From contig CAYVNX010000006.1 of NCBI GenBank assembly GCA_964453165.1, forward strand, positions 1 to 60,246: a stretch of DNA of 60,246 bases, written 5' to 3'. Position 1 is the stretch's first letter. Each line of letters begins with the position of its first letter. Under the pieces are notes generated by a model. That model had not been told where the DNA came from, ran no database searches, and worked only from the letters and a program-made list of their open reading frames with translations. The stretch comes from an uncultured Candidatus Kuenenia sp. (lineage in GTDB: Bacteria; Planctomycetota; Planctomycetia; Pirellulales; UBA1268). Positions 2,515 to 31,522 of the stretch are shown here, one piece after another. The translations under genes were made by a program, and so were the position numbers.

Positions 2515-3312
2515 ATGTCTCAGCCTGCTGATTCGCTCTTCGATCTCACCGGCCGCACCGCGCTCGTCACGGGCGCCAGCCGCGGGCTCGGCCGTCAGAT
2601 GGCCCTCGCGCTGGCCCGGGCGGGCGCCGATCTGGTGGTGACGGCCCGAGCCGTCGGGTCGCTGGCCGACACCGTCGCCGAACTGGAAGCCCTCGGCCGG
2701 CGGCCCGTGGCCGTGCCGCTCGACCTGCGGGACGAAGCCAGCATCCGAGCCGCCGCGGCGGCGGCGATCGCCGCCAAGGGCCCCCCGGACATCCTCGTCA
2801 ACAACGCCGGCTGCAACGTCCGCAAGCCCGCGCTCGAAGTCACCTGGGACGACTGGAACACCGTCCTCGACACGAACCTCCGCGGCACCTTCTTCATGGC
2901 CCAAGCGATCGCCCGCGGCATGGTCGCCCGCGGCTCGGGCCGGATCATCAACATCGGCAGCGTGACGAGCGTGTTCGGCTACGCGGGCCTGGCTCCCTAC
3001 ACTGCCAGCCGCGGCGGCGTGAAGCAGTTGACGATGAGCCTGGCCGACGAATTCGGTCCGCACGGGATCACGGTCAATTGCCTCGCGCCCGGCTGGTTTC
3101 GCACGGCGCAGAACGACGTGCTCTATCGAGACGAGGAGTGGCTCGCGTATCTCGTCGATCGGATTCCGCTTCGGCGGCCGGGCATCCCGGCGGATCTCGA
3201 CGGCGCGGTCGTGTTCCTGGCCTCCGAGGCCAGCCGCTACATCACCGGCCAGACCCTGCTCGTGGACGGCGGGATCACCACCGGCGCCACCCGAGCCCTG
3301 CCGCGGGCGTGA
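2515..3312 (+). CDS. SDR oxidoreductase, gluconate 5-dehydrogenase/KduD-like
   Basis: TGASRGLG, NNAG, YTASR (YxxxK position carries R), NCLAPGWFRT, ITGQTLLVDGG; next to GntP. Confidence 0.85.
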   Translation: MSQPADSLFDLTGRTALVTGASRGLGRQMALALARAGADLVVTARAVGSLADTVAELEALGRRPVAVPLDLRDEASIRAAAAAAIAAKGPPDILVNNAGCNVRKPALEVTWDDWNTVLDTNLRGTFFMAQAIARGMVARGSGRIINIGSVTSVFGYAGLAPYTASRGGVKQLTMSLADEFGPHGITVNCLAPGWFRTAQNDVLYRDEEWLAYLVDRIPLRRPGIPADLDGAVVFLASEASRYITGQTLLVDGGITTGATRALPRA

Positions 3313-3450
3313 AGCGGCTCGAGGAAAGCCGGAAGCGTGATCTGGGGGATTCTCCCCATGGTCGCCACGGTCGCGGTCACGGGGTCTCCCTCGCGACGCC
3401 GGCCACAGCGCAGATCGCCAGCGGGCGTGCTCAGGGCGCGATCGGGCGGC

Positions 3451-3672
3451 TCAAGGGCGATCGACACCGCCGTCGAGTTCGGCCGGCCACGTCGAAAGGT
3501 CGTCCGGCGTGTCGAAGGCGCGGTGCAAGGCGGTCAACTCGGCCTCGCGACGGTCGCGAGGCAACCGGGCCCAGGCAGCCGCCTCTTCGCCCATCGTCCG
3601 TGCCAGCAGTTCGTAATACCACTCGGGGTATTCGGCCGGAGGAGCCTCGTTGTGATGGGGTGCATCGCTCAT
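3451..3672 (-). CDS. Small acidic hypothetical protein (73 aa), translationally coupled to the upstream gene
   Basis: ATGA overlap with the stop of 3669..4613. Confidence 0.5.
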   Translation of the reverse strand: MSDAPHHNEAPPAEYPEWYYELLARTMGEEAAAWARLPRDRREAELTALHRAFDTPDDLSTWPAELDGGVDRP

Positions 3673-4613
3673 GGCAGCATCTCCTCGATGGGCGGCGCGA
3701 GGGTCGCGATCTCGCTCGGCTCCAGATTCGCAAGCACTGCGGCGCGGGCCAGGCCGGCTTCATACACGGCAACACGGGCGGGCGCTGTGAGCGGTGCTGG
3801 AGGAAGCTCATGCCTGCGGGCGGCTTCCACCACGAATGCGTGCTGGTCGGCAAATGGCATCGATCTCGGCCACGGGCAATCCTCGGCCTGCTGCCACCGG
3901 CGATAAAATGCCTTCCAGGCAGTCTGGTAGAGGCCGTAGCGGCCGCGGTTGACCGATTCCCAAACGATGCGTTCCGCCCGCACGAGAAACTCGAGGCGGT
4001 CGTTATCGGCAGTCCGGTCGATGGCCGCAAGCAGCGGTCTAGCAGCGCACGCTGGTTCACGCGCGGCGAATGGTAGGGTGGCCCAAGCCCTCCGCAGCGG
4101 CTCAACGGCCTGGAGGTGGAGCACCGCCTGGGACTCGTTGCGGGCAAAAGACTGCGATGCAAGGCCACCGACGATCGGCCAGTCTCTGTCCCGGTCGGTT
4201 TTTTTCATTCGCGCTACGGTATCCCGGTCGGCGAAGTCGGGATCAGCAGCGTCCGCGGTCCAGTGTTTCACACGCGGCGGGCGACCGAAGAAATCGACGT
4301 GATGGTCAGGTCCGCCCCCCTCCGTACGGACCGATAGATGTGACGTCCAGCCTCCCGCGAACCACTCGGCTTCGAGCGGGGCCCCGAAAATAGAGCGGTA
4401 TCGGACCACCCATGGAGGTAGCGAGGCTTCATGGCGAATGAACAGGCTCCGGACTCCCTCCGCCTGATCCGGAGGCACAATCCAATCCGAGTCCTTGGTG
4501 GTTTGCTGCAGTCCGTAGTGAACGCACGCCATCCCGCTCGTGATCGCGAAGCGAATGCCCGACGCCCGCAGATCGATCCGCAAGGTGTTCAGGAAGTCGA
4601 GCGGTGTCTGCAT
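3669..4613 (-). CDS. Putative nucleotidyltransferase (Pol-beta-like fold; AbiEii/DUF6036-like)
   Basis: FAITSGMACVHYGLQQTTKDSDWIV resembles GGxA..YG..RxTxDxD; later VDFF and MKKTDRDRD. Confidence 0.55.
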   Translation of the reverse strand: MQTPLDFLNTLRIDLRASGIRFAITSGMACVHYGLQQTTKDSDWIVPPDQAEGVRSLFIRHEASLPPWVVRYRSIFGAPLEAEWFAGGWTSHLSVRTEGGGPDHHVDFFGRPPRVKHWTADAADPDFADRDTVARMKKTDRDRDWPIVGGLASQSFARNESQAVLHLQAVEPLRRAWATLPFAAREPACAARPLLAAIDRTADNDRLEFLVRAERIVWESVNRGRYGLYQTAWKAFYRRWQQAEDCPWPRSMPFADQHAFVVEAARRHELPPAPLTAPARVAVYEAGLARAAVLANLEPSEIATLAPPIEEMLP

Positions 4614-4737
4614 GAAAACCTCGATCCCGGCGTTCTCGGCCGGCACGCCGTCGAGACTCCGCGCATCCCAATAGGATAGCCCGATCAGCGGCACTTTCAC
4701 CACCTGCGGCACCCGAGGCCTGCCGCGGGTTGCAGGG

Positions 4738-4743
4738 TAGAAT
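4738..4743 (+). promoter_or_regulatory. Putative -10 element (TAGAAT) for the DUF1592/DUF1552 operon
   Basis: Near-consensus hexamer 8 nt before in-frame GTG at 4752. Confidence 0.4.
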
Positions 4744-4772
4744 GCGGGTTCGTGAGAGGAGCGCGGATCGTG

Positions 4773-6716
4773 ATGCAGCGCGGACGAATCCTGGTCGGTG
4801 TTCTTCTGGCGGCGTCGGGGCCGACGGCCGTCGCGGCCGACGAGGATGCTGCCGAGATCGCCCGTTGGCAGGAGACCTTCGCCGACAAGGTGCGGCCGCT
4901 GTTCGAGGCGAAGTGCCTGGCGTGTCATTCGGGTGCGGAGTCGGAGGGCGACTTCGATCTGGCGGCGGTGATGGCGGTCGAGCAGCCGGCCGAGCAGGGC
5001 ATGACCTGGGATCGGGTGGCGGCCCGGGTGCGGCTCAACGAGATGCCGCCTCCCGGCAGCCCCGGGCTCTCCGATCCGGAGAAGGGCCTACTCCACCGCT
5101 GGCTCGATGGCCGGCCGGGCCGCAATCTCTGCGAAGAGCTCGCCAGCGACGAGACTCAGAGCTGGTATCGCGGCCAGGTGATGAGCCGGCGGCTGACCCA
5201 CGCCGAATACGAGGGCATGATCGCCGCGCTCGTCGGGGTCGACCTCGATCCGGCCCGGAATCTGCCGCCGGATGGCGCTGGCGGCGAGGGGTTCGACACC
5301 ACCGGCGACACGCTGTTTCTCTCACCGATTCACCTGGAGCGGTATCTCGCCGCCGCCGACGATGTCGTGGAGACGGTGCTGGCCGACGCGATGCCACCGG
5401 CCGATGCACCCGAGCGGGCGGGTTGGGAGCGGTGGGTGGGCGTGGGCTTCGAACCGACCGCGGCGAACGTCCGCGACCGGCTCGCGAGCTTCGCCACGGC
5501 CGCCTGGCGACGGCGGGTGACCGACGAGGAACTCGATCGGCTCGTAGCCCTCGCCGAGGAGACGGCCGCGCTCCCTGAGGCTCGGCCGCTCGACGGTCTG
5601 CGGCAGGCCTGCAAGGCGGTGCTCGTCTCGCCGAACTTTCTCTACCTCGTGGAGACCGTCCAGGCCGGGGGCGTCGAACCGCTCGCGCCGCGGCAGCTCG
5701 CCACGCGGCTGGCGGTGTTTCTCTGGGCGTCACTGCCCGACGACGAACTCCTGCGGCTGGCGGACGAGGGCCGGCTCACCGACGACGACGTGCTCAGGGA
5801 GCAGGTGCGGCGGATGCTCCGCGACCCGCGGAGCCGAAGCCTGGCCGAGGCGTTCGGCCTGCAATGGCTCGAGCTCGGCGGCTTCGCCCAGCGGGTGGCG
5901 GCCGACCGGAGCCTGTTTCCCGAAGTCGACGACCCGCTCGTTTCCGACTTTCGCGAGGAGACGATCCGCGTCGTGCACCGAGTGTTCGCCACCGATGCGA
6001 GCCTCCTCGAATTGATCGCGGCCGATGTGACCCCGCTCAACGCCCGGCTGGCCGTCCACTATGGCCTGCCTGAGCCGGAGCAGGTGGGAGCCGACGGCTG
6101 GGGCGTGGTCCCGCTCGCCGACGGCCGCCGTGGCGGCGTGCTGACGACGGCGGCGGTGCTTGCGACCACGTCGTATCCCCGCCGGACGAGTCCGGTGCTC
6201 CGCGGCCAATGGGTACTCGGTCAGTTGCTCGGCGGGCGGGTGCCGCCGCCACCGCCGGGCGTGCCGCCGCTGCCGGAGCCCCACGAGGGCGAGGAAAACC
6301 AAACGCTCCGGCAGCGGCTCGAGGCGCACCGCTCGAATCCGTCCTGCGCGACCTGCCATGACCGGATGGATCCGCTCGGCTTCGGCCTCGAAAACTACGA
6401 CCCGCTCGGCCGCTGGCGGACCACCGACGCCGGCCAGCCGATCGACGCCTCGGGCACGCTCCCCTCGGGCGCGAGCTTTGCCGGCCCGGAGGAGCTCAAG
6501 GCCCGGTTGCTGGATCGTCGCGAGGAGTTCATACGGCACGTTTCCCGCAAGCTGCTCGGCTTCGCGCTCGGCCGCCAGCTCGACGAATTCGACCAGTGCG
6601 TGGTGAAGCGGACGGCCGAGCGACTGGCCGCTGCCGACTACCGGGCCGGCCTGCTCGTCGAGGAAATCGTGCTCAGCCACCCCTTCCGGCACCGATACCA
6701 TAAAATGGAAGACTGA
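4773..6716 (+). CDS. Planctomycete cytochrome c protein with DUF1587/DUF1595/DUF1592/DUF1588/DUF1585 domains
   Basis: Signal peptide, CLACH and CATCH heme motifs, RRLTHAEY, SPNFLY, LWASLPDDELL, TSPVLRGQW, MDPLGFGLENYD. Confidence 0.9.
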   Translation: MQRGRILVGVLLAASGPTAVAADEDAAEIARWQETFADKVRPLFEAKCLACHSGAESEGDFDLAAVMAVEQPAEQGMTWDRVAARVRLNEMPPPGSPGLSDPEKGLLHRWLDGRPGRNLCEELASDETQSWYRGQVMSRRLTHAEYEGMIAALVGVDLDPARNLPPDGAGGEGFDTTGDTLFLSPIHLERYLAAADDVVETVLADAMPPADAPERAGWERWVGVGFEPTAANVRDRLASFATAAWRRRVTDEELDRLVALAEETAALPEARPLDGLRQACKAVLVSPNFLYLVETVQAGGVEPLAPRQLATRLAVFLWASLPDDELLRLADEGRLTDDDVLREQVRRMLRDPRSRSLAEAFGLQWLELGGFAQRVAADRSLFPEVDDPLVSDFREETIRVVHRVFATDASLLELIAADVTPLNARLAVHYGLPEPEQVGADGWGVVPLADGRRGGVLTTAAVLATTSYPRRTSPVLRGQWVLGQLLGGRVPPPPPGVPPLPEPHEGEENQTLRQRLEAHRSNPSCATCHDRMDPLGFGLENYDPLGRWRTTDAGQPIDASGTLPSGASFAGPEELKARLLDRREEFIRHVSRKLLGFALGRQLDEFDQCVVKRTAERLAAADYRAGLLVEEIVLSHPFRHRYHKMED

Positions 6717-15298: not shown

Positions 15299-16681
15299 TC
15301 AGCGGGGGCCCCACGACGGCAGACTCGGCAACCGCATGGCCCGGACGGTGGTCGTGCCTGAACCGCTCACATCCGAATCCGCGTTCCCAACGGAGAGCGT
15401 CTGCTCGCCGGCCGTGGCGAAAGTCACGCGGAGCAGAGCGATGCCGTTGACGAAATCAACAGTACTCGGGAGCGTTGCCTCGGCGTCGCTGCTCGACACG
15501 GCGAGGCTGCCCATGAAGCCTCGAACCATGCGGCCATCGGCGTCCACGGCCACGAGTTGCGCGAGCATCGGCAGGCCAGCGATCACCTGCCGGGGCAGCC
15601 AGACGTCGATGGCGGCAACGGTCGGAGCCGCCTTCACGGTGGTCGTCGCGGTCGCCTCGATGTCGCCGGTCGTCACGGTCACGTGCTGCGCGCCAAGCGT
15701 GGCGAATGCCACTTCGAAATAGGCTCGACCGCGGCGGAATTGCACCGTCTCGGGCAGCCTGGCTTCCGGATCGCTCGAGGCGAGCGTGGCGGATCCGCTG
15801 AACTCTCGGATCGCCTCCCCGTCGGCGTCGATGGCGACGACCGCGACTCGAGTCGTTTGACCGGCCACCACGTCGGGCCGCAGTTCGATCCGGAAGTCGG
15901 CGACGACGGGTTGCGCCGCGACGGTGGTCGCCGCTTCGGCCGTGAGGTCGCCCGCCGTGGCCGTCAGCGTCTGCTCGCCAGGGGTGCCAAACGTCACCGT
16001 CGCCACGGCCCGGCCCCGCTCGAAGGTGACTGTCGTTGGGAGGGTCGCAGCCTCGTCGCTACTCGTGAGCGAGACGTCGCCGCTGAAGTTCGGCACGCTG
16101 CGGCCATTGGCGTCGAGGGCCATCAGCATCACCTTGACCGGTGAATCGACCCTGGTCGATTCGGGTATGCGCATCACCAACTGCGTCGCCACGATCGGTG
16201 CGGCGACCCGGGTCGTGTCGGATCCGGTGATCGGGGCGATGCCGACGGTGCTGGCGGTGAGGGTTTGTTCGCCGGTCGTGTTGAACGTGACGCTGACAAA
16301 GGCCCGGCCCCGCGAGAACGAGACCGATTCCGGCAGAACAGCCGCTTCGTCGCTGCTCGACAGGTACACCTCCCCGCTGAACGAGGCAGGACGATTGTCG
16401 GCCCCGACCGCCATGATCAACGCCCGCACCGGCAGCCCGTTGGGCACGGCCGAGGGAAGTACGACGGAGAAGCCAGTGGCCTCGACGTCGGTCACCACGT
16501 CGCCGGCATCGGCCCCTGGCAACCGACCGTCAGACAATCGTGTGAGGACCGACTGTGCGAGGCCAACGAGGTCGATCGGCATGCCGCTGAGCACCATGCG
16601 GGCCTCGAGCCCTTCGAGGCCGAGTTGAGCGGTGCGGGCAGCCGTGTGGTTTCTACGATCGGAACGCCGATTCGTCGCCAT
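15299..16681 (-). CDS. Planctomycete extracellular protein with LEPR-XLL-like leader and four ~95-aa Ig-like repeats
   Basis: LEGLEARMVLS leader; four repeats of A.DA.G....F.G...L.SSD..A.LP..V.F..GRA...VTF.T.G.QT. Confidence 0.75.
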   Translation of the reverse strand: MATNRRSDRRNHTAARTAQLGLEGLEARMVLSGMPIDLVGLAQSVLTRLSDGRLPGADAGDVVTDVEATGFSVVLPSAVPNGLPVRALIMAVGADNRPASFSGEVYLSSSDEAAVLPESVSFSRGRAFVSVTFNTTGEQTLTASTVGIAPITGSDTTRVAAPIVATQLVMRIPESTRVDSPVKVMLMALDANGRSVPNFSGDVSLTSSDEAATLPTTVTFERGRAVATVTFGTPGEQTLTATAGDLTAEAATTVAAQPVVADFRIELRPDVVAGQTTRVAVVAIDADGEAIREFSGSATLASSDPEARLPETVQFRRGRAYFEVAFATLGAQHVTVTTGDIEATATTTVKAAPTVAAIDVWLPRQVIAGLPMLAQLVAVDADGRMVRGFMGSLAVSSSDAEATLPSTVDFVNGIALLRVTFATAGEQTLSVGNADSDVSGSGTTTVRAMRLPSLPSWGPR

Positions 16682-16784
16682 GGTGAAACTCCTCGAGATG
16701 CAACCCCTGAGAGACGTCGCTCTCCCCTGGACGGAGAGGCTACCACATGGAACGAATCGGGCCAGCAAACGTTGCGGGAGCCCC

Positions 16785-19700
16785 CTATTTGACCGGGATT
16801 TCGGCCCGCCAGCGGCCGTCTTCGAGCCCGATCCGCTCCAGAGGAATCCGCCGGAAGCCGATCTCCCAGGCCGGGGAGTCGTCGGCCAGCCGGTAGTCGC
16901 CGGCGGCGGCGTCGACGAACCGGGGGTCGGCGTCGATCAGGTTGTGTTCGAAGGTCACACTGGCCCCGGCCGCCGGCTCGATCGTCGCCCAGGTGCCGCC
17001 CGTGCTCACGTTGCGGCGGACGACGACGTTGCGGGGCATCTGCGGAGCCTCCTCCAGGAGCCGCGCGATCTCCGGATACCGATTGGTCCAGGTGGGGCTC
17101 TGCCAGGGCATCTCATCGAGCTTCTGTCGCATATAGCCGCCGGGAACGACCGTGGGGGCGAACCAGCCGATCCCGCGAGCGTCCACCTCGACGGCCGGCT
17201 CTCCGTTGACGAACAGGTTGTTCTCGACGAGGTTGTCGCGGCCGCCGCCGATGAAGGCCGACCGGCCGGCGTTGCGGAAGAAGTTGCCGACGATCGTGAT
17301 GCCGCTGGCGCAGTCGTCGAGATAGACCCCCATCGCCCCGAGCCGACCAGGGGCCACGATGTCCTCGAACCGGTTGTGGCGGATCACCGTGCCCCGCATC
17401 GACCAGTCGCGGCCCATGTAGAAGGCTCCCACGTCACCCGTCTCCTGGCAGACGTCGCGGATGTGGTTGAGTTCGATTTCGTGGTCGTTGCCCCCGAGCA
17501 GGATGCCGTTGTGCGGCGCGTCGTGGATCAGGTTGTGGGCGGCGCGGTTGCCGACGCCCTGGATCTCGACGGCGGGGCGGTAGGTCCGCTGGAGCCGGGC
17601 GTAGTGATGGATGTGGTTGTTCTCAGCGCGGTGGCCGGCGGGTATGAGCCGCGGGCGGTCGCCGCCAACGAGCCGCACGCCGCCCGCCCCGAGATCGTGC
17701 AGGTCGCTGCCGAGCACGGCATGCCCGCTGCCTCCCTGCACGTCCACGCCCCAGCCGCCTGCGTTCCGCAGCCGGCAGCCGCCGATCGTCACGGCTTCGC
17801 CGCCGGTGATCGTCACGAGCGTGCCCCGGCTGCCTTCGAGCACGAAGCCGCGGAAGGTCACCCGCGAGACACCGTCGCAGACCAGGACATGGTCGAGAAG
17901 CGTCACGGTCGCCTCGCCCGTGAACCCTTCCGGCGGCCAGAGGTAGAGGACGCCGTGCTCCCGATCGACGCACCATTCGCCGGGGTGGTCGAGTTCGCAG
18001 AGCATGTTGAAGCCGTAGAACCGCTGGCCGCTCCGGTAGGTCGTGTGCGGCTCCTCGAGTTCGATCGAGCGAGCGGCCGGATCGACGGCCTTGATGCGCT
18101 GTCGGGAATCGGACCAGTCCCAGAAGAAGTAGCCGAACAGCCAGCCGTCGGGCTCGTGCAGCCAGGCCGGCAGCCGGTCGATGTCGGCAGTGAACTTCCC
18201 GACGGAGTTGCCCGGCAGTCCGCCGTCGGTCATCGGCCGGTCGCCGAGCAGTTCACCGATCGTGGCAAAGCCGTCGTTCGGCCAGCGGGCGATCGGCTGG
18301 CAGACGTCGTTCACGAACACCTCGAGACGTTGGTCGCTGCCGGCGAAGGTGCCGGCATCGGCGACACCGGCTGCCTTCAGGTCGGCCTCGAGGACGTGGG
18401 GCCGGGCCGCCTCGGGGATCCGGGCGACGACCCCGGCGCCGCGGACGGGCTTGAAGCCGCCCACTCGTCGACCACCGGTGAGCACGACCCGTTCGCTCGG
18501 GGCCGACTCCCAGGTCACGCGGGTGCGGGTCGTGCCGCTGTCGGCGGCAGCCAGCGCGAGCGGCTCCGCGAGTTGATGCGTGCCCCCGTGGATCACGACC
18601 CGAATGTCGGCGGGCGGCGACTCGGAGGCGAGCATCGTCCTCACGCGATCCCGGGCGGCGGCCAGCGTGGCGAGCGGGCCGCGGTCGGTGCCCGCCGCGT
18701 GGGTGACGGCGGTTCCCGTCCAGGCATCGTTGCCTTCGAGGGCGACATGCACGGCGACCGACTCCGCGGCGGCCGTGGTCATGGCCGAGAGGCCGGCGAA
18801 GGCCAGCAGGTGGAAAGCACAGGTCTGACGCTGCTGCCGCCACCACCAAAGCGCGACGACCACTGCAGTTACCGCCCAGCCGCCAGCGGGCTCGGGCACC
18901 GCGGCCGCGACGGCCGCGCCGGTCGGCAGATAGGAGCCGGTGCCGTACGTGCCCGCCGCTTGCACGGCGATCAGGTCGAGGACGTTGCACACGCCGTCGT
19001 AGTTGAAATCCCCCTCGCTCCAGAAGGCCGCCTGCGGCGAGCCGTAACGACCGCCGGAGACGATGCCCACGAGGTCGAAGGCATCGACCTGGCCGCTGAG
19101 ATTCGTGTCGCCGGCAGAGGCGAAGGCGACGGTCAGCGACCCATCGGACGCGGCGAGATAGCCGAGGGTGCGGGTGCCTGCCGAAGCCGCCGCCACCGAG
19201 GAGGTGATGCCCGAGGCGCCGAGCCACGAACCGGTGCCGCGGCCTGCAAAGAGTGCCTCGAACAACGCGGCGAGCGACATCCCTCCGGCGGCCACTTCCA
19301 CCCGGCCGCTGCCCAGATCGACGAGGCCGCCGCCGGCGCCCAGGACGATCGAGAGCGATGCGGCGTCGACGGTGACCGGCCGTGCCGCGGGCAGGAGTAA
19401 CCGGCCATTGCCGGCCACTGTGATCCGGCCACCAAGTTCCCCGCCGGTGGCGATCGCGAGCGTCCCCGCTGCGATCCGCGTGCCGCCGGTGTGGCGGGCC
19501 CGGCCCGCGAGCACCGTCCGGCTCGAGCCGATGCCCGTCACCGTGACCTCGCCCGGTCCGATGAGGTCGCCCGCGAGCGTGGCTGTGACCGAGAAGAGTC
19601 CGCCGGCCCGGATCGTGGTGTCGGCGGCGATCGCGAGCGTGCCGGCCAACGTGCCGGTGTTGGAGAACCGGATGGCTCCGCCGAGTCCGGTGCTCCCCGC

Positions 19701-21176
19701 GCCCGCGACGGCAATGTCGTTGGCAAACACCCCTTGATCGGCCTTCAGGTCGAGTCCGCTGCCCGAGGCCACTTCCACCGAGGCCGTGCCGAGCGCCGCG
19801 GTGCTCCCGAGTTCGACCGTGAGATTGCCTGCGAGGCGGGCGGTGCCCGTCAGCGTCGAGCCACCGCCGACGGGCCGGAGCACGATCAGGGAAGCGGCCG
19901 GGCCCCCGCCGCCGATGAGTTCGGGCGCGTTGCCGGCCAAGCGGGCGGTGACGAGCAGCGTCGCCCCGTCGGCGACGGTGAGCGACGGCGCGCCGACGAG
20001 GCTGAGATCGGAAGCGGTCGCGGTCGCTCCCAGTCGGTACCCGGTCGTGCGGACGTCGATCGATTCCACGGTGACCCCATCGGCGGGCACCACCGTGCCC
20101 GCAGGGCCGGCGAAGATCGCCGTCGTGCCGAGGGCCGGTTCCGAATTCCAGGCCACGTCGGGGCCGTAGATCGCGCCGTCCCGCCAAGTGATTCCGGCGG
20201 AAGTCCAACTGCCCGAGCCTCCCCGGACACCGTCGCCCGCCCACCAGAGTTCGCCCGGCGTGTACACCGGCGTCTGATAGAAGACACCCAGGTTGTTGCC
20301 CACCGCCCGAGGGCTGCCATCGGAAGGCGTGTTGAGGATCTGGGTCTTGTTCACCCCGGATGCCGTGGGATTCCACCAGGCCATCGTGGTGGAGCCGCCC
20401 CCGTCCAGGTAGATGCCATCCCAGGCCCCGAAGGAGGCGAGCCACTCGCCCACCTCCCGGTTTGTGGCCCCCACCGACGCGGTCGAGCGGCCGTCGATCG
20501 TCATCAGGTAGACGTAGCGGGTGTCCTGCGAAACGCCGACTCCCGTGCGGGGCTGCCGATCGGTGCCGGAGAGCCGTGGGCTGCCGGCCGCCAGGCACTG
20601 ATAGATGCCGGAGACGGCGGTCCAGGAGTCACCGGCCGTCGTGACGTTGATCGTGTCGAGGATCGACGGCACGCCATCGGCCGTGACCGAGAACGACGCC
20701 CGGCCCACGCCTTCGGCGACTCCGGGCGAGACGAGCACGCCATCCGACACGGCGAAGCCCGTGAGATCGGCCACCGAGCCATTGGCCACGTAGAGGTTTG
20801 CATTGACGGCGGCGACCAGCGGATGCGACGTGCCCCGTGAATTCGTGATGAAATTCGGGGTCGTTTGGAGGATTGTTTCGCGAACCCCGGGCTGCCAGGA
20901 AGAGGCCCGCGGTGTCGTAAAGAAGGAGAGCCCGGGGGCGAGTGTGTCGATCCGAAGACAGTTCACCTGGAGCGGGTCGGGGGCGGTGAGCGTGAGGTCG
21001 GCGTGGAGGATGCCGGGGGAGAGCATCGCGGCCGTCGTCCAGTCGAACGGGGACTGGCCCCGGGCAGCGGGGCTGGCGAGGCCGGTCATGACGCCGGTCA
21101 GAAAACCGAATGCCAGACTGCCGACGAGTCGGGTGGATCGGCCGCGACACGGCAGCGGGACGGCGGAGGGAATCAT
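16785..21176 (-). CDS. 1463-aa fusion: phosphodiester glycosidase (NAGPA-like) + autotransporter-associated repeats + dockerin-like module + internal PEP-CTERM + right-handed beta-helix carbohydrate-active domain
   Basis: QPRTGVG, TIDGR, LDGGGST; GDTNLSG.VD.FDL and GDFNYDG; VPEP at residue ~760; then GPLATLAAARD, ARWPNDG and DVGAFY...GVYLDD beta-helix repeats. Confidence 0.8.
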   Translation of the reverse strand: MIPSAVPLPCRGRSTRLVGSLAFGFLTGVMTGLASPAARGQSPFDWTTAAMLSPGILHADLTLTAPDPLQVNCLRIDTLAPGLSFFTTPRASSWQPGVRETILQTTPNFITNSRGTSHPLVAAVNANLYVANGSVADLTGFAVSDGVLVSPGVAEGVGRASFSVTADGVPSILDTINVTTAGDSWTAVSGIYQCLAAGSPRLSGTDRQPRTGVGVSQDTRYVYLMTIDGRSTASVGATNREVGEWLASFGAWDGIYLDGGGSTTMAWWNPTASGVNKTQILNTPSDGSPRAVGNNLGVFYQTPVYTPGELWWAGDGVRGGSGSWTSAGITWRDGAIYGPDVAWNSEPALGTTAIFAGPAGTVVPADGVTVESIDVRTTGYRLGATATASDLSLVGAPSLTVADGATLLVTARLAGNAPELIGGGGPAASLIVLRPVGGGSTLTGTARLAGNLTVELGSTAALGTASVEVASGSGLDLKADQGVFANDIAVAGAGSTGLGGAIRFSNTGTLAGTLAIAADTTIRAGGLFSVTATLAGDLIGPGEVTVTGIGSSRTVLAGRARHTGGTRIAAGTLAIATGGELGGRITVAGNGRLLLPAARPVTVDAASLSIVLGAGGGLVDLGSGRVEVAAGGMSLAALFEALFAGRGTGSWLGASGITSSVAAASAGTRTLGYLAASDGSLTVAFASAGDTNLSGQVDAFDLVGIVSGGRYGSPQAAFWSEGDFNYDGVCNVLDLIAVQAAGTYGTGSYLPTGAAVAAAVPEPAGGWAVTAVVVALWWWRQQRQTCAFHLLAFAGLSAMTTAAAESVAVHVALEGNDAWTGTAVTHAAGTDRGPLATLAAARDRVRTMLASESPPADIRVVIHGGTHQLAEPLALAAADSGTTRTRVTWESAPSERVVLTGGRRVGGFKPVRGAGVVARIPEAARPHVLEADLKAAGVADAGTFAGSDQRLEVFVNDVCQPIARWPNDGFATIGELLGDRPMTDGGLPGNSVGKFTADIDRLPAWLHEPDGWLFGYFFWDWSDSRQRIKAVDPAARSIELEEPHTTYRSGQRFYGFNMLCELDHPGEWCVDREHGVLYLWPPEGFTGEATVTLLDHVLVCDGVSRVTFRGFVLEGSRGTLVTITGGEAVTIGGCRLRNAGGWGVDVQGGSGHAVLGSDLHDLGAGGVRLVGGDRPRLIPAGHRAENNHIHHYARLQRTYRPAVEIQGVGNRAAHNLIHDAPHNGILLGGNDHEIELNHIRDVCQETGDVGAFYMGRDWSMRGTVIRHNRFEDIVAPGRLGAMGVYLDDCASGITIVGNFFRNAGRSAFIGGGRDNLVENNLFVNGEPAVEVDARGIGWFAPTVVPGGYMRQKLDEMPWQSPTWTNRYPEIARLLEEAPQMPRNVVVRRNVSTGGTWATIEPAAGASVTFEHNLIDADPRFVDAAAGDYRLADDSPAWEIGFRRIPLERIGLEDGRWRAEIPVK

Positions 21177-21229
21177 GCTGCTCGATCCCTCGAGTGATGA
21201 CGGTCGTCGGCAAGCTGCTGTCAGGCCGC

Positions 21230-23692
21230 TCACCCCGCGGGGCGCCGGCGGCGAACCAGGCTTCCGGCTCCCAGCCCGAAGAGAGCCCAGCCGAGCACCG
21301 CGGTCGGCTCCGGCACGGCCGAGAGGCTCCCGGTCGCGGTAGGTGCCGCCGGGAAATAGTTGCCTTGATTGTACGCACCGCCGCCGTTGATCGCGACGAG
21401 GTCGAACACGTTGGTGACGCCGTCGTAGTTCATGTCGCCGTCGTTCCAATCGGCGGCCACCCCGCTGCCGTAGGTGCCCGAGGAGTTGATCCCCACGAGG
21501 TCGAAGACGTTGACCGCCCCGCTCAGGTCGATGTCGCCGGGCGCCGCGAACGACACGCGGGCCGAGCCATCGCCTGCCACCACGTAGCCCACGGCCCGTC
21601 CTCCGCCCGCTGCGGCGGCCGTGCTCGACATGATGCCGGTATTGCCGTTCCAGCCGCCGTTGTTGCGGCCGGCGATGATGTCGGCCCGGAGGTCGGCCGC
21701 CGAGATGCCGCCGGCGGCGATGGATACTTGGCCGGCGCCGAGATCGAGCCGGCCGCCGCCGCTCGTCTGCGCCACCGCCAGGCTGCCGACTGCCACCGTC
21801 ACGCGGGCATCGTCGGCGAGGGCCAATTGCCCTCCGCCATCGACCGTGACGGACGGAGCGCCGGAGATTGTGCCGGCGTTGATCGCCAGCGATGCGATCC
21901 CGCTCGTGGAACTGACGGCGAGCGTTGCGGCGGCCAGCGTGCCCCCGTCTACGATCACCGAGGGCGACCGCATCGAGATGCCAGAGCCGACCGCGAGCGT
22001 GGCGCCGGAGTCGACGGTGACGGCGGTCGCGGCGAGCCCGTCGGCATTCGTGACTTCCAGCGTGCCGGCCGAGATCGTGGTCGGACCGGCATAGGCATTG
22101 GCGGCGTCGAACACGACCTTCCCCGCGCCGGTCTTGGTGACCGAGGTGGCTGAGGGAATCGAGGGATAGCCCGCCTGGGCCTGGGTGACCGATCCACTCG
22201 CCACGTTGATCACGATGTCGGTGGGCGGGCCGCCGGCCGGCGTGAAGACGAGGTTCAGGCTGGTGCCCGTCTGGGTGACCGAGAAGCTTCCTCCCTGGAT
22301 CTCGTTGGCGAAGCCGGCGGATGCGACCGTGGGGGAGGTGTTGATCTGAAACGCATCGGCCGAGAAGCCGGTGATCCCGCCTGCGGCCCGGGCAAACTCC
22401 CAGGTGTAGGCCTGGGCCGGATTGAAGCCGGTCGCAAGGCCCGGAGTGTCGGGCGAGGTGGCGGAGAGCGTTTCGAGGTCAAGGAGCACGGGACCGAACT
22501 GATCGGCCGAGATGCTCAGGCTACCGCCGATCTCGAGCACGCCCCAGCCGCCGGCCGCCGAACCGTCGGCGAGCTTGAAGACCTGGCCGGAGTAGGGGCT
22601 CCAGGCGACGTCACCCGTGACGGTGAAACTGCCGGGACTCGGCGCGAGTACACCCGACGGCCCCACGATCAGCGAGCCCGCGACCGTGCCGAGGCCGCCC
22701 ATGATCTGGCTCGGCGCGACCGTGAGCCCGCCGGTCACGCCCGTCACGTCGAGCCTGCCGGCCGGATTCACCGTGACCCTGGTCGAGGTGTCGATCGAGC
22801 CGAACACCGACTCACCCTGTCGGTCTACGGTGCGAATGGCGAGCGTGCCGGCGTCGATCACCGTCGGGCCGGTGTATTCGTTGGGCACGTTGAAGGTGAC
22901 CGTGGCGTTGGGCACGTTCACCTGCACACCCAGCGGCCGCGAGCCGCTGTTGTTGGTGCTGCCATCCTGAATGTTGACGTTGAACACCATTCCGCCGGTG
23001 CCGTTGCCCTCGAGCGGGATAAGCCTGACCGATGCCCCGGGCTGGTCGGCGTAGCCGGCGGTCAAGGCCTGCCCGTAGATGCTGCCGAAGCTGCCGGTGT
23101 TGGCAAGTGAGCCGAAGGTCAGCGGCAGGGGCGAGTCGTTCCGGATGAACGTGTCCAGGCCCACGCCGATCCGGAGGATGCCGGTCGACGTGTTGACTGC
23201 ATCGCCCATCTGGACCGGACCCGAATCGGCCTCCACGATCAGACCATTGACGATGTCGAGCCGGCGGGAACTCGTGAGCGCCGATTCGGCCGACCAGGCC
23301 AGGATTCGCTTGACGTTCGATTCCCGGAAGCTCATCGAATGGACGATCCGGTAGCCGAGGTCGCCGTACCCGGGGCCGCCGATCCAGATGCCGTCCGTGT
23401 TGGCCCGGTTGTCGAAGATCACATCGTCGAACTCGCCGGGGAAATCGGGCGTGCTCGTCCAGTTGTTTGGGGCTCCGGGTGTGCCGTCGCCTGGGCCCAC
23501 CGTCTGGCCCCAGCCCATCTTGCCTTGGGCAAGGTTGGTCCAGGCGATTTCGGCGGCGCTTCCGGTCGACCCTGCCGCCATCGCCAGCAAAATCCCGCTC
23601 ACGATCAGCGGAATCCTGCAAACTCGCAGCCTTGGCCGCGAAGCGCGAGCATCGGACGAGTGGGTGAAGGCAGGGCTGGGGCGGGCGTTCAT
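21230..23692 (-). CDS. PEP-CTERM surface protein with autotransporter-associated beta-strand repeats and dockerin-like module
   Basis: Signal peptide, NEYTGPTVIDAGTL and NAYAGPTTISAGTL repeats, GDIDLSG/GDMNYDG, terminal VPEP-TM-RRRR. Confidence 0.85.
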   Translation of the reverse strand: MNARPSPAFTHSSDARASRPRLRVCRIPLIVSGILLAMAAGSTGSAAEIAWTNLAQGKMGWGQTVGPGDGTPGAPNNWTSTPDFPGEFDDVIFDNRANTDGIWIGGPGYGDLGYRIVHSMSFRESNVKRILAWSAESALTSSRRLDIVNGLIVEADSGPVQMGDAVNTSTGILRIGVGLDTFIRNDSPLPLTFGSLANTGSFGSIYGQALTAGYADQPGASVRLIPLEGNGTGGMVFNVNIQDGSTNNSGSRPLGVQVNVPNATVTFNVPNEYTGPTVIDAGTLAIRTVDRQGESVFGSIDTSTRVTVNPAGRLDVTGVTGGLTVAPSQIMGGLGTVAGSLIVGPSGVLAPSPGSFTVTGDVAWSPYSGQVFKLADGSAAGGWGVLEIGGSLSISADQFGPVLLDLETLSATSPDTPGLATGFNPAQAYTWEFARAAGGITGFSADAFQINTSPTVASAGFANEIQGGSFSVTQTGTSLNLVFTPAGGPPTDIVINVASGSVTQAQAGYPSIPSATSVTKTGAGKVVFDAANAYAGPTTISAGTLEVTNADGLAATAVTVDSGATLAVGSGISMRSPSVIVDGGTLAAATLAVSSTSGIASLAINAGTISGAPSVTVDGGGQLALADDARVTVAVGSLAVAQTSGGGRLDLGAGQVSIAAGGISAADLRADIIAGRNNGGWNGNTGIMSSTAAAAGGGRAVGYVVAGDGSARVSFAAPGDIDLSGAVNVFDLVGINSSGTYGSGVAADWNDGDMNYDGVTNVFDLVAINGGGAYNQGNYFPAAPTATGSLSAVPEPTAVLGWALFGLGAGSLVRRRRPAG

Positions 23693-24112
23693 CGGCGCGA
23701 CTCCGTGCTGGATCAATTCGAAGCGGGGCGGCGAATGCGAGAACCCGAATCGCATGACATCCCTCGCGACTCCTGCGGAAATCGCATTCTACTCGCCCTC
23801 GCTCCCCGACATTTCGGGAAATGCATCAAGCAATGCAAGCCGCGAGCCGTGTGAGAATTTCGCAAGCGAGCATAGAGACGCGGGTTTTGGTCACCTCGTC
23901 GCCTCGCTGGCGTAAAGGAATTGCCCGGAGTCGTAAAGATTCGCCCGTTCATAAAGGAACCGTGCGACCGGAACGTTGACCAACCCGGTGGGTGGGGACG
24001 ATCCTACGCCCAGCGTCCGTACCGCGAGCGGTGCGGTATCGCTGCCATGACTGCCCGAGCGTGGTCTGGTCCCGCCTGCCAGAGTCCCACCGTCATTCCT
24101 GCGAGCCCACCT

Positions 24113-25180
24113 ATGAGCAGCCTGCCTCACGCCACGCCATCGCGACATCGCCCTCTCCATGGTTTCACCCTCGTCGAACTTCTGGTCGTGATCGCGATCA
24201 TCGCCACGCTGATCGGTCTGCTTTTGCCCGCCGTTCAGAGCGCTCGTGAGAGCGGCCGCCGCGTGCAGTGCCAAAACCATCTCCGCCAGGCCGGCACAGG
24301 CTGGCTGTTGCACGAGAGCGTGAAGAAAACGCTTCCCAGCGGCGGCTGGGGCCTGGCCTGGACAGGCGACCCCGACCTTGGCTTTGGCTCACGGCAGCCG
24401 GGTGGGTGGATCTACTCGATCCTACCGTTTCTCGAGGAGACATCGCTGCACAACCTCGGCGCCGGCCAGCCCGAGGCTGCGAAGAAGCAGGCGGCCCGCG
24501 ACCGGCTCGCTGCCGCCTCGTCGACTTTCTACTGTCCCTCCCGGCGGTCGGCCTCGCCGTATCCCTGGACGCAGTCGTGGAGCATGGCCAATGCCGTGAT
24601 GCCGACGTCAGTGGGCCGCTCCGATTACGCCGCCAACGGCGGCAGTGTCTACAACCAGGTGGGCGAGCCGATCGCACCGCCCTGGTCCGGTCATGCTGCC
24701 GGCGACGTCAACGGCGGCCCCGCCTCGGTGGCTGTCGGCACCTCGACCACAGCCCGCAGCCACTTCTCCCGCCTGGCCGGCCTGACCGACGGCGTCGTCC
24801 ATGCGGGCAGCGCCGTCAAGATTTCCCAACTCACCGATGGCACGAGCAAGACGCTTCTCGTGGCCGAGAAGCACATGGATCCCGACAACTACGCCACGGG
24901 CAACGACGGCGGTGACAACGAAGCAGCGCTGATGGGCATGGGCCGCGACATCGTCCGCTGGAGCAACCATGCTGATGGCAGCCCGCTGCCGCCGGTCAAG
25001 GACGCCCGTGGCCTGGGCCAGAAGGGCTCCAACTCCTTCGGCTCCGTCCACGCGGCCACCTTCAGCGCCGCTCTCTGCGACGGTTCGGTTCGCGGGCTCG
25101 CCTTCGACATCGACCCGGCCGTCTTCCAGAGCCTCGTCGACCGCAACGATGGCCAGGCGATCCCGGGCGGGAGCTACTGA
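24113..25180 (+). CDS. DUF1559 prepilin-type N-terminal cleavage/methylation protein
   Basis: [44 protein letters not shown]9-DG. Confidence 0.95.
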
Positions 25181-30451: not shown

Positions 30452-31522
30452 TCAGTAATCGGCCGTTTCGCCCATGGCACGGGTCGCCAGGCCTCGGTAG
30501 GTTGCCAAGTCGATCGACTCGGCGATCCAGCCGACCGAGCCGTCGGCCCGGGCGAAGTGAGCGCCGCCTGGATGATAGCTGCCAAAGCTTATTTCCATGA
30601 GCGTGCCGTGCATCAAAGGATTCAGCCGGCTGTTGATTGGCACCACCGCCGAGCCCACGCCCTCGGAGTATTCCGATCCGCGGATGTAGCCGGGCGCCCA
30701 ACTCTTGGCGGCGCCCAACTGGGGGCCGAAGATCGCCCAATAATCCATGCCCTGGCTGTCCTTGTTGTAATCCGTGTCGGTGTAGGTTTCGCCGACGATG
30801 AGCGTCTTCGATGTGCCGTCGGTGATCTGCCGCATCTTGATGCGGCTGCCGCCGAACAGGATGCCGTCGGACGACCGGACCCACCGCTTCGCATCGTCGG
30901 GGTCGCCCGAGCGATCGTCCGTCGTACCCTCGAGCGGCCAGTAGGTCGGCATTTTGTAGCCGGCGATCATCGTGCTCGTGTCGTCCGACGAGATCATCGC
31001 CCCGGCCACGCCCCGATAGCTGGCCGGGACGCGGCCCGTGATCCCCTGGCTGTCCTTGCCGAGGGGGATGTCGGCGCTCGGGCAGCGGTAGGCCGAGATC
31101 ACCGTCTGGCAGGCCCGGCGGTTGGGGTGATTGAAGTTCGACCAATCGTTGGTGCCCGGATCGATCCATTCGAGCGTGTCGTAGAGGGCCTGCTCCTCGA
31201 GTCCCGGCAGGATGTGCGCGGTCCAAAACTCCCGGTAGATGCCGAACCCCGGCGGGAACCGCCCCTTGCCAGAGTGGAAGTTCTGCAGGGCCAGCCCCTG
31301 CTGACGGAGATTGTTTTGGCACTGCACCCGCCGGGCGCTCTCGCGGGCGCTCTGCACCGCCGGCAGCAGGAGGCCGATCAGCGTGGCGATGATCGCGATC
31401 ACGACGAGGAGTTCGACGAGAGTAAACCCCAGTCGGCCGAGCCGCCCGCAGGCGGGGGATGGCCGGGCTCGGCGAGCCCCTCCGGTGCTGGCGTTCCACG
31501 ACCCATTGTCGGACGTATTCAT
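30452..31522 (-). CDS. DUF1559 prepilin-type protein
   Basis: [41 protein letters not shown] (H-X9-DG). Confidence 0.95.
   Translation of the reverse strand: MNTSDNGSWNASTGGARRARPSPACGRLGRLGFTLVELLVVIAIIATLIGLLLPAVQSARESARRVQCQNNLRQQGLALQNFHSGKGRFPPGFGIYREFWTAHILPGLEEQALYDTLEWIDPGTNDWSNFNHPNRRACQTVISAYRCPSADIPLGKDSQGITGRVPASYRGVAGAMISSDDTSTMIAGYKMPTYWPLEGTTDDRSGDPDDAKRWVRSSDGILFGGSRIKMRQITDGTSKTLIVGETYTDTDYNKDSQGMDYWAIFGPQLGAAKSWAPGYIRGSEYSEGVGSAVVPINSRLNPLMHGTLMEISFGSYHPGGAHFARADGSVGWIAESIDLATYRGLATRAMGETADY

Follow-up and report, generated by a model that had tools for sequence, protein, structure and literature searches.

What becomes of an exported protein when a sorting signal of a kind normally found at the C-terminus lies in the middle of the chain, ahead of another export signal and another enzyme? 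This question is raised by a gene on the minus strand of the 60,246-nucleotide (nt) stretch analysed here (contig CAYVNX010000006.1, hereafter the window), which is one whole contig in the 137-contig, 67.5% complete genome bin of a freshwater planctomycete (G000 in our comparison set). The gene product, P0001, comprises 1463 residues when counted from the ATG at 21176, and combines a NAGPA-containing PEP-CTERM protein and a right-handed beta-helix enzyme within one frame. We conclude that the gene arose naturally by the in-frame joining of two neighbours that each encoded an exported enzyme, and that the fusion has been conserved. Its N-terminal part belongs to the genus's large family of exosortase-sorted surface proteins, and its C-terminal part is a GH141-like beta-helix glycosidase, which sister lineages encode separately, complete with a Sec signal peptide of its own. 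An earlier interpretation of the letters of the window (the sequence-only reading) had gone further and proposed a membrane hairpin with both enzymes outside; this proposal, which we somewhat favour, is weighed below.

The frame and its junction

The frame is open from 16785 to 21449 on the minus strand, and amounts to 1554 residues if counted from an upstream TTG. Sequence from the surroundings of the junction (18300-19400), in whole or in part, was present in 20 public runs from 11 studies. Logan contigs, built with a different assembler, were compared for four runs over positions 18000-19700. In runs X1 (possibly the source run), X3 (study P2) and X4 (study P3), this region was spanned by a single contig with 1, 1 and 3 differing letters, respectively, and in run X5 (study P4) a 189-nt contig bridged 18720-18908 without any difference. 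Neither indels nor a stop were found at the junction in the Logan contigs of these four runs. The three substitutions in the long contigs correspond to A759V and two synonymous changes; A759V results from a G>A change at 18901 (X3 and X4 contigs), two places before PEP, and leaves the motif itself unchanged. Both alternative reading frames across the junction contain stops and the fusion frame contains none. The RNA runs X18-X20 contain 5-7% of the sampled words. The fusion frame is real and common to near-identical populations in several samples, and the uninterrupted frame of 1463 codons, from which the sequence-only reading had started, stands, being open and free of stops or indels in contigs from three other studies.

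One segment of this region differs in depth. Over 18969-19025, summed contig depth was about ten-fold higher in X1, X3 and X4 (88-245 versus 9-21 in adjacent bins); in X5 it was 15.5 versus single figures around it, and many short contigs end there. The segment is the conserved dockerin-like core common to dozens of paralogues, and likely a breakpoint for assemblers.

The internal signal consists of A759-V760-P761-E762-P763 (nt 18902-18888), directly followed after PEP by the 16 hydrophobic residues A764-W779 and by R780-Q-Q-R-Q784. A further 700 residues separate the PEP motif from the stop, and the signal is hence not at the extreme C-terminus. The neighbouring paralogue P0002 provides a terminal counterpart, with VPEP, a hydrophobic stretch, RRRRPAG and a stop 24 residues after PEP; it has the same stalk, the same dockerin-like module and the same distance from module to PEP as the fused gene, in agreement with the placement that had been read from the letters. 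PEP-CTERM was not reported in Pfam and NCBIfam scans of full-length P0001, only the excised 36-residue segment giving matches. On such excised segments, TIGR02595 scored 14.0 bits for the internal signal and 12.7 for the neighbour's tail (cut-off 16), and PF07589 scored 14.7 and 11.4 bits, respectively (cut-off 20.7). The AVPEP motif, helix and RQQRQ patch singled out at residue ~760 by the sequence-only reading thus score slightly above a genuine tail and, to judge by their sequences, the internal segment and the P0002 tail are one diverged, sub-threshold local type of PEP-CTERM.

A module made of the dockerin-like part and PEP is carried by 28 open frames of the genome. The stop lies at most 45 residues after PEP in 24 of them (median 26) and 46-80 residues after it in another two, while distances above 100 residues occur only in the fused gene (700) and in a frame on contig C127 (350). 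The genome also encodes an exosortase (G000:C21; PF09721, 163.8 bits; TIGR02602, 110 bits with a cut-off of 105.55; TIGR04178, 43.7 bits with a cut-off of 23), as well as a signal peptidase I (TIGR02227, 79.8 bits summed).

Immediately after the basic patch, T785-A804 forms a 20-residue stretch, first hydrophobic and then polar, which ends in AAA; E805 starts at nt 18764, and 659 residues lie between the AAA and the stop at 16785-16787. RQQRQ, the core, the polar c-region and the small residues at positions -3 and -1 reproduce the layout of a signal peptide, although this one begins at residue 780 of 1463, i.e., not at the N-terminus, and a signal peptidase I site is predicted between A804 and E805. 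The standalone protein P0110 (682 residues, 92% identical) opens with Met and five residues, after which come a core that differs very little and an unchanged site between AAA and ES, and other unfused orthologues show signal peptides at the same place. Because the segment is found in this position in P0110 and the unfused orthologues, we regard it as a true signal peptide by descent, namely the one that, by sequence comparison, originally belonged to the beta-helix enzyme. Both the signal-peptide-like segment with its AxA site and the beta-helix enzyme of ~660 residues behind it, as proposed earlier, were thereby recovered. A fold model of the junction (residues 680-860, 5-row alignment) placed helices at ~767-781 and ~787-796, with a predicted local distance difference test value (pLDDT) of 41.2 and a predicted template modelling score (pTM) of 0.28, too poor to count. 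Similarly, a hydropathy scan marked both junction segments along with many other Ala/Val-rich stretches, and is descriptive only.

With regard to the enzymes themselves, the NAGPA domain scored 90 bits in Pfam (cut-off 25), and the N-terminal half matched PDB entry 3ohg (DUF2233) with an E-value of 3e-11. Residues ~330-790, which include the stalk, gave many paralogous matches in G000 and its relatives, and the Pfam matches to PATR (550-575) and dockerin (688-738) were weak. In the C-terminal half, Beta_helix (PF13229) matched residues 1183-1322 with 49.9 bits (cut-off 25.9). Sequence matches in the PDB were 9rx2 ('Parallel beta-helix repeat protein'; E 2e-25) and BT_1002 (E 2.9e-7), the latter being confined to ~95 N-terminal residues. 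An AlphaFold model of the half (9-row alignment; pLDDT 72.7, pTM 0.76) had as its best fold match BT_1002, of glycoside hydrolase family 141 (GH141), with E 5e-18, a template modelling score of 0.51-0.58 and 15-18% identity; XylC (GH120) came second (E 7e-13). The Pfam scan listed no GH141-type family for the C-terminal half at E <= 0.1, and a NosD match remained below cut-off. The modelled fold suggests a GH141-like enzyme, a possible member of the family itself.

Fused and two-gene relatives

Relatives were searched in a first set of 41 genomes (40 plus G000), in 68 genomes of the genus and in a large protein collection. Matches at E <= 1e-60 were obtained in 11 of the 68 genomes. Three of these 11 carry fused frames: G000 itself, G078 (90% identity, C-terminal half) and G061 (83%). 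Unfused frames for the C-terminal half occur in G009, G003, G051, G063 and G023; the G054 match is cut by a contig end, and the others are in G022 (41%, a frame of 1625 residues) and G081 (32%). In the 41-genome search, a separate gene for the C-terminal half was found in G009, G003, G034 and G023 (frames of 729-887 residues), and the frames upstream of these four genes had no PEP tail; in G009 and G003, the gene adjoins a xylose-isomerase-like gene. The protein collection added three full-length fused proteins with both PF09992 and PF13229, P0003, P0004 and P0005, which are 80%, 81% and 74% identical to P0001. Since P0004 is identical to the G061 frame, the fusion is carried by four other lineages (G078, G061 = P0004, P0003 and P0005). 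G000, G078 and G061 share one arrangement of genes on either side of the fusion.

The elements of the junction were retained throughout. PEP is kept in all five fused proteins (invariant P761, E762 and P763 in 4/4 aligned, and present in G078), and the distance from PEP to the first Arg is exactly 17 residues in every one of them. The second hydrophobic core is also present in 5/5, with a small-x-small site (AAA, AAA, ASA, ASA and AFA) just ahead of the conserved beginning of the enzyme. In the four compact fusions, no more than 2-4 Arg are found between one hydrophobic stretch and the next, and acidic residues appear only after the small-x-small site; the basic patch thus does occupy the former place of the n-region, in line with the earlier suggestion. 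P0005, in turn, has ~45 additional residues that separate the Arg patch from the second core, the latter being preceded directly by a Met. Differences in junction length between lineages amount to whole codons. The ratio of nonsynonymous to synonymous substitutions (dN/dS), determined by the Nei-Gojobori method among G000, G078 and G061 (dS 0.2-0.74), was 0.16-0.18 in the N-terminal half and 0.145-0.17 in the C-terminal half, values that include the G000-G078 pair sharing one junction; both halves are under purifying selection.

A stop just after the basic patch, in reads or close relatives, had been named beforehand as the finding that would reduce the locus to two ordinary genes. The assemblies contain no such stop and four other lineages are fused, but some close relatives do have two ordinary genes. 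For the N-terminal half, these are P0043 (789 residues, 89% identical) and P0044-46 (790-795 residues, 71-73%), all of which end 11-14 residues after the Arg patch with a shared short tail ending in ET. For the C-terminal half, they are P0110 (92%), P0111 (81%), P0112 (79%) and P0113/114 (72-74%). P0045 and P0111 have the same length of longest contig, 81,732 nt, and are probably on one contig; the DNA of the P0111 contig was not among the 12 loci found in metagenome contigs, the best of which were a 69% relative and an 89% fragment.

In the tree of the N-terminal half, P0043 groups with G000 and G078 (100/100), and this group is nested in a clade that also contains the fused P0003 and P0004 (100/98), P0005 falling outside it. 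Similarly, P0110 groups with G000 and G078 in the tree of the C-terminal half (100/100). Approximately unbiased (AU) tests of a group named after a first tree was seen rejected trees forcing the fused forms together, with p 2.5e-35 for the N-terminal and 1.4e-86 for the C-terminal half. A single origin of the fusion, as suggested by a 12-row tree of the C-terminal half (fused clade 100/99), was dropped when wider sampling put two-gene forms inside. The most economical reading of these sequences suggests three events on one gene pair, i.e., a read-through in P0005 and two deletions, one in P0003 and P0004 and the other in G000 and G078. P0005 is taken as a stop-loss read-through because its linker opens with the tail of the two-gene form and then reads on, with the Met before the signal core. 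Each of the deletions appears to have joined the Arg patch to the signal core: it would have taken the short tail and stop of the N-terminal part, the intergenic spacer, and the start codon and first residues of the C-terminal part, so that the Arg patch of the PEP-CTERM would come to abut the hydrophobic core of the signal peptide. Alternatively, the two-gene forms may have been re-split by recombination.

Run-on frames of another composition were also observed. On contig C127 of G000 (L024, ~2587-5604, plus strand), the frame of a stalk/PEP-CTERM protein continues, with no intervening stop, into that of a DUF1559 prepilin-type protein, in the order PEP, hydrophobic helix, basic stretch, prepilin cleavage motif and helix. 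Matches without a stop through this junction occur in 4 of the 68 genus genomes (G000:C127; G054:C498, L038; G078:C124, L037; and G061:C148, which equals P0025); the G054 fusion has Ala, not Gly, before Phe. The two-gene state is seen in G078:C83 (L035, minus strand), where the PEP-CTERM gene ends in TGA and the Met of the prepilin-type gene follows two codons on in the same frame; as this single TGA separates the two in-frame genes, one base change would fuse them. Within 200 codons, only one of the 28 module-bearing genes of G000 is followed by a prepilin-type gene, and this lies in another frame, so that adjacency alone does not explain the fusions. Internal VPEP, helix and basic patch followed by more protein are present in P0020, P0024 and P0006 as well, leading, respectively, into a signal-like stretch and a DUF4082 protein, into 1179 residues including glucose-dehydrogenase-like domains, and into a Met-containing linker and a prepilin-type protein. 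The window itself holds two DUF1559 prepilin-type genes, at 23921-25180 (plus strand) and 30464-31468 (minus strand), of which the second shares 66% identity with the prepilin-type portion of the fusion on C127.

The features of the fused gene are compiled in Table 1. Directly downstream of it, at 15299-16768 on the minus strand, a gene for 489 residues with about five similar repeats of ~75 residues is found, which is conserved beside the fused gene in G078.

Table 1. Features of the fused gene and its neighbouring comparator in the window
Feature	Position	Strand	Basis or remark
Whole fused gene, P0001	16785..21176	-	1463 codons + TAG stop; same junction DNA in independent assemblies
N-terminal export signal region, residues 1-40	21057..21176	-	Arg-rich start, hydrophobic ~16-34; putative, from sequence and hydropathy
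NAGPA / DUF2233 phosphodiester glycosidase domain, residues 120-299	20280..20819	-	PF09992; PDB 3ohg
Beta-strand-repeat stalk, residues ~330-680	19137..20189	-	Weak PATR/TIGR02601 match at 550-575; paralogous matches
Dockerin-like module, residues 688-738	18963..19115	-	Pfam Dockerin_1, E 0.054, below cut-off
VPEP motif, V760-P763	18888..18899	-	PEP in 5/5 fused proteins
First hydrophobic helix, A764-W779 (membrane-spanning part of PEP-CTERM)	18840..18887	-	First Arg spacing, 5/5 fused proteins
Basic patch RQQRQ, R780-Q784	18825..18839	-	Compared with two-gene relatives P0043 and P0110
Second hydrophobic segment, T785-A804, ending AAA	18765..18824	-	Homologous to N-terminal signal peptides of P0110 and unfused orthologues
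GH141-like right-handed beta-helix glycosidase, residues 805-1463	16788..18764	-	Pfam, PDB and fold matches
Neighbouring paralogue P0002, terminal PEP-CTERM (comparator)	21230..23755	-	Also conserved in G078 and G061

Proposed export and processing

The order of segments at the junction points to the following scheme, in which the membrane topology and both cuts are inferred. The N-terminal signal would start Sec export, and the PEP-CTERM helix would halt transfer, its N-end facing out and its C-end facing in, which would leave the Arg patch in the cytoplasm. The second hydrophobic segment would then re-enter the translocon, N-end inside and C-end outside, so that the 659-residue glycosidase would cross the membrane. 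The chain would thereby form a helical hairpin, and both enzymes would come to lie beyond the cytoplasmic membrane. Signal peptidase I would cut after AAA (A804), freeing the beta-helix enzyme, and exosortase would cut at the PEP signal and pass the NAGPA protein to its surface anchor, with a hairpin peptide of ~40 residues remaining. On balance, we are inclined to believe that the fusion is processed as such an anchor-then-signal hairpin delivering two enzymes outside. As far as the architecture is concerned, the hairpin with two enzymes put forward by the sequence-only reading agrees with what was found, i.e., an internal PEP-CTERM, an inherited signal and both processing enzymes encoded; among the relatives the outcome was mixed, four other lineages being fused and some close ones not.

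A number of points weigh against this scheme. Both PEP-CTERM models score the internal segment below their curated cut-offs, and its basic cluster has only two Arg, interspersed with Gln, which makes it weaker than that of most paralogues. Haft et al. 2006 considered that PEP-CTERM copies at a distance from the C-terminal end 'may represent non-functional examples' (PMC1569441). We found, in the literature searched, no demonstration of exosortase cleaving an internal signal in bacteria. The nearest relatives use two genes, so the fusion is not required. P0110 comes from a 2081-nt contig, whose 5' side is beyond reach, and P0043 and P0110 are not linked to one organism. The choice of the AU-tested group after inspection of a tree has to be counted here too. 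The 48-codon junction evolves faster (dN/dS 0.33-0.55), and the AxA of G000 and G078 may be conserved only through the young age of their fusion.

A stronger version of the hairpin scheme, which we advance tentatively and consider rather doubtful, sees the step from anchor to signal as a selected, repeatedly evolved route to secreted polyproteins, in which a single gene and a single translocation event would supply two glycan-degrading enzymes at a 1:1 yield, with an Arg patch shared by both signals and an extension to prepilin-type signals. In that case, prepilin peptidase would cut the PEP-CTERM::DUF1559 fusions on the cytoplasmic side. Its counterpart, for which we see some, though not a large, chance, is that the fusions are neutral by-products of stop loss and small deletions in a genome of 70% G+C, which would persist only because a signal placed behind an anchor is topologically harmless, without any benefit from a 1:1 ratio or co-location. 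The alternation of fused and two-gene forms among close relatives, the simple read-through of P0005, the PEP-CTERM/prepilin-type pair of G078 with a single TGA between its in-frame genes, and the occurrence of further fusions of the same kind all fit such an accident. However, the same compact design, with the Arg patch leading directly into the signal core, apparently arose from two separate deletions, and purifying selection acts on both halves after fusion. Furthermore, the opportunity for such accidents is not large, given that only 2 of the 28 PEP-module frames run past the signal and only one has a prepilin-motif frame within 200 codons.

It is also conceivable, but in our view unlikely, that the hairpin forms and is cut only once or not at all, which would result in a permanent double-headed membrane-bound enzyme or, for example, in an N-terminal part freed by exosortase while the beta-helix enzyme stays anchored through the hairpin. 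The topology argument applies here exactly as it does to full processing, both cuts being equally hypothetical, and an internal signal peptide after a membrane helix is not known as a standard substrate for bacterial signal peptidase I. On the other hand, the short core, the polar stretch and the small-x-small site were retained in all five fused proteins, including P0003 and P0004 with their many differences in the core; the segment was inherited from a cleavable N-terminal signal; and the PEP motif and its 16-residue spacing are kept in 5/5 as well.

Quite improbable is an internal start at the GTG of V772, within the first helix, as the source of most of the beta-helix enzyme, which would then have an odd signal peptide of its own, with the full-length chain as a minor product. 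Codon 772 is GTG in G000, and the aligned position is ATG in G061 and Met in P0003. However, G078 has GCC in this column, and translation could start there in frame at only three codons, a GTG within the second core and a pair of ATGs in the polar residues that immediately precede the site. Of the in-frame codons at which translation could start between PEP and the cleavage site (GTG 772 and ATG 799 in G000, several in G061), none keeps its position, the V of VPEP being the only start-capable codon position-conserved in the DNAs of G000, G078 and G061. Since the upstream frame has no stop, the fused chain would be made regardless. Internal initiation may occur in G000; it is not a conserved feature. 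Finally, an artefact of assembly or sequencing, or a stop loss private to one strain, which the fragmented and incomplete source bin might have led one to suspect, is refuted for practical purposes by the same junction in independent assemblies of three other studies and by fused frames in four diverged lineages.

Meaning and comparison with known systems

If the fusion is processed as proposed, exosortase signals in bacteria are not bound to the C-terminus and, if the tentative idea of a selected polyprotein is true, they are modular processing sites independent of position. The locus would also illustrate a simple route from neighbouring genes for exported proteins to a bacterial polyprotein: a stop loss or small deletion would cost nothing, because an anchor running from outside to inside followed by a signal running from inside to outside is topologically self-consistent. 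From a practical point of view, a cut in the middle of the chain would alter its size considerably, exosortase cleavage being otherwise hard to show, and the fused and two-gene versions, which are 89-92% identical, constitute a ready-made test pair. Annotation rules that require a C-terminal PEP-CTERM miss such proteins, and automatic pipelines may call them errors.

Canonical substrates of the PEP-CTERM/exosortase (EpsH, Xrt) system share with P0001 the N-terminal signal, PEP, the ~16-residue helix, the basic patch, an encoded exosortase and membership in a paralogous family. In the PEP-CTERM proteins of Haft et al. 2006, according to the part of the paper used here, a median of 3 residues lies past the signal (PMC1569441). 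By contrast, 700 residues precede the stop here, a second export signal and an enzyme follow, and the hidden Markov model scores are below cut-off. No relevant report of an internal PEP-CTERM was found in the main texts of the literature searched; supplementary tables may list further internal motifs.

Chains of two proteins divided at an internal signal peptide are known from other contexts. The cytochrome b/c1 precursor FbcH of Bradyrhizobium is a bacterial chain of this kind, which belongs to a respiratory membrane complex rather than to secreted enzymes and has no sorting tag. In viral glycoprotein polyproteins, such as bunyavirus Gn/Gc in the cited section of PMC5113920, an anchor is likewise followed by an internal signal peptide, at which signal peptidase separates the products. 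These are, as far as that section goes, viral genes acting in the eukaryotic endoplasmic reticulum, without a sortase-type step and without homology to the fusion described here.

A nearer parallel is HVO_0405 of Haloferax volcanii, reportedly a Tat substrate, to go by the title of Abdul Halim et al. 2017. This natural fusion is cleaved by the archaeosortase ArtA, an exosortase homologue, at a central tripartite PGF-type signal, and it served, by a size shift, to show archaeosortase cleavage (excerpts of PMC7157517). Both fusions derive from two independent genes and have a mid-chain signal for processing by the exosortase/archaeosortase family. HVO_0405, as presented in those excerpts, is archaeal, carries PGF instead of PEP and is strain-specific, whereas the fusion studied here is conserved and recurrent and its cleavage inferred; the same excerpts of PMC7157517 mention no second export signal after the anchor. 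In Myxococcus xanthus, MXAN_5598 has an internal MYXO-CTERM, which is rare, and was read as a two-gene fusion of an adhesin with its tag and an exported protein, the N-terminal part being proposed to be processed and surface-anchored (PMC11980579, in part). With reference to Navarre & Schneewind 1994 and Abdul Halim et al. 2017, the same passages state that sorting tags of the C-terminal kind also function when located in the middle of a protein. MXAN_5598 differs in its myxosortase and Cys-containing motif, and a shared basic patch or second signal peptide is not discussed in the passages of PMC11980579 referred to here. Mid-chain signals of the sortase family that arose by gene fusion are already known, and what the present case adds is a conserved, probably hairpin-forming junction where a single basic patch would do duty for the two signals.

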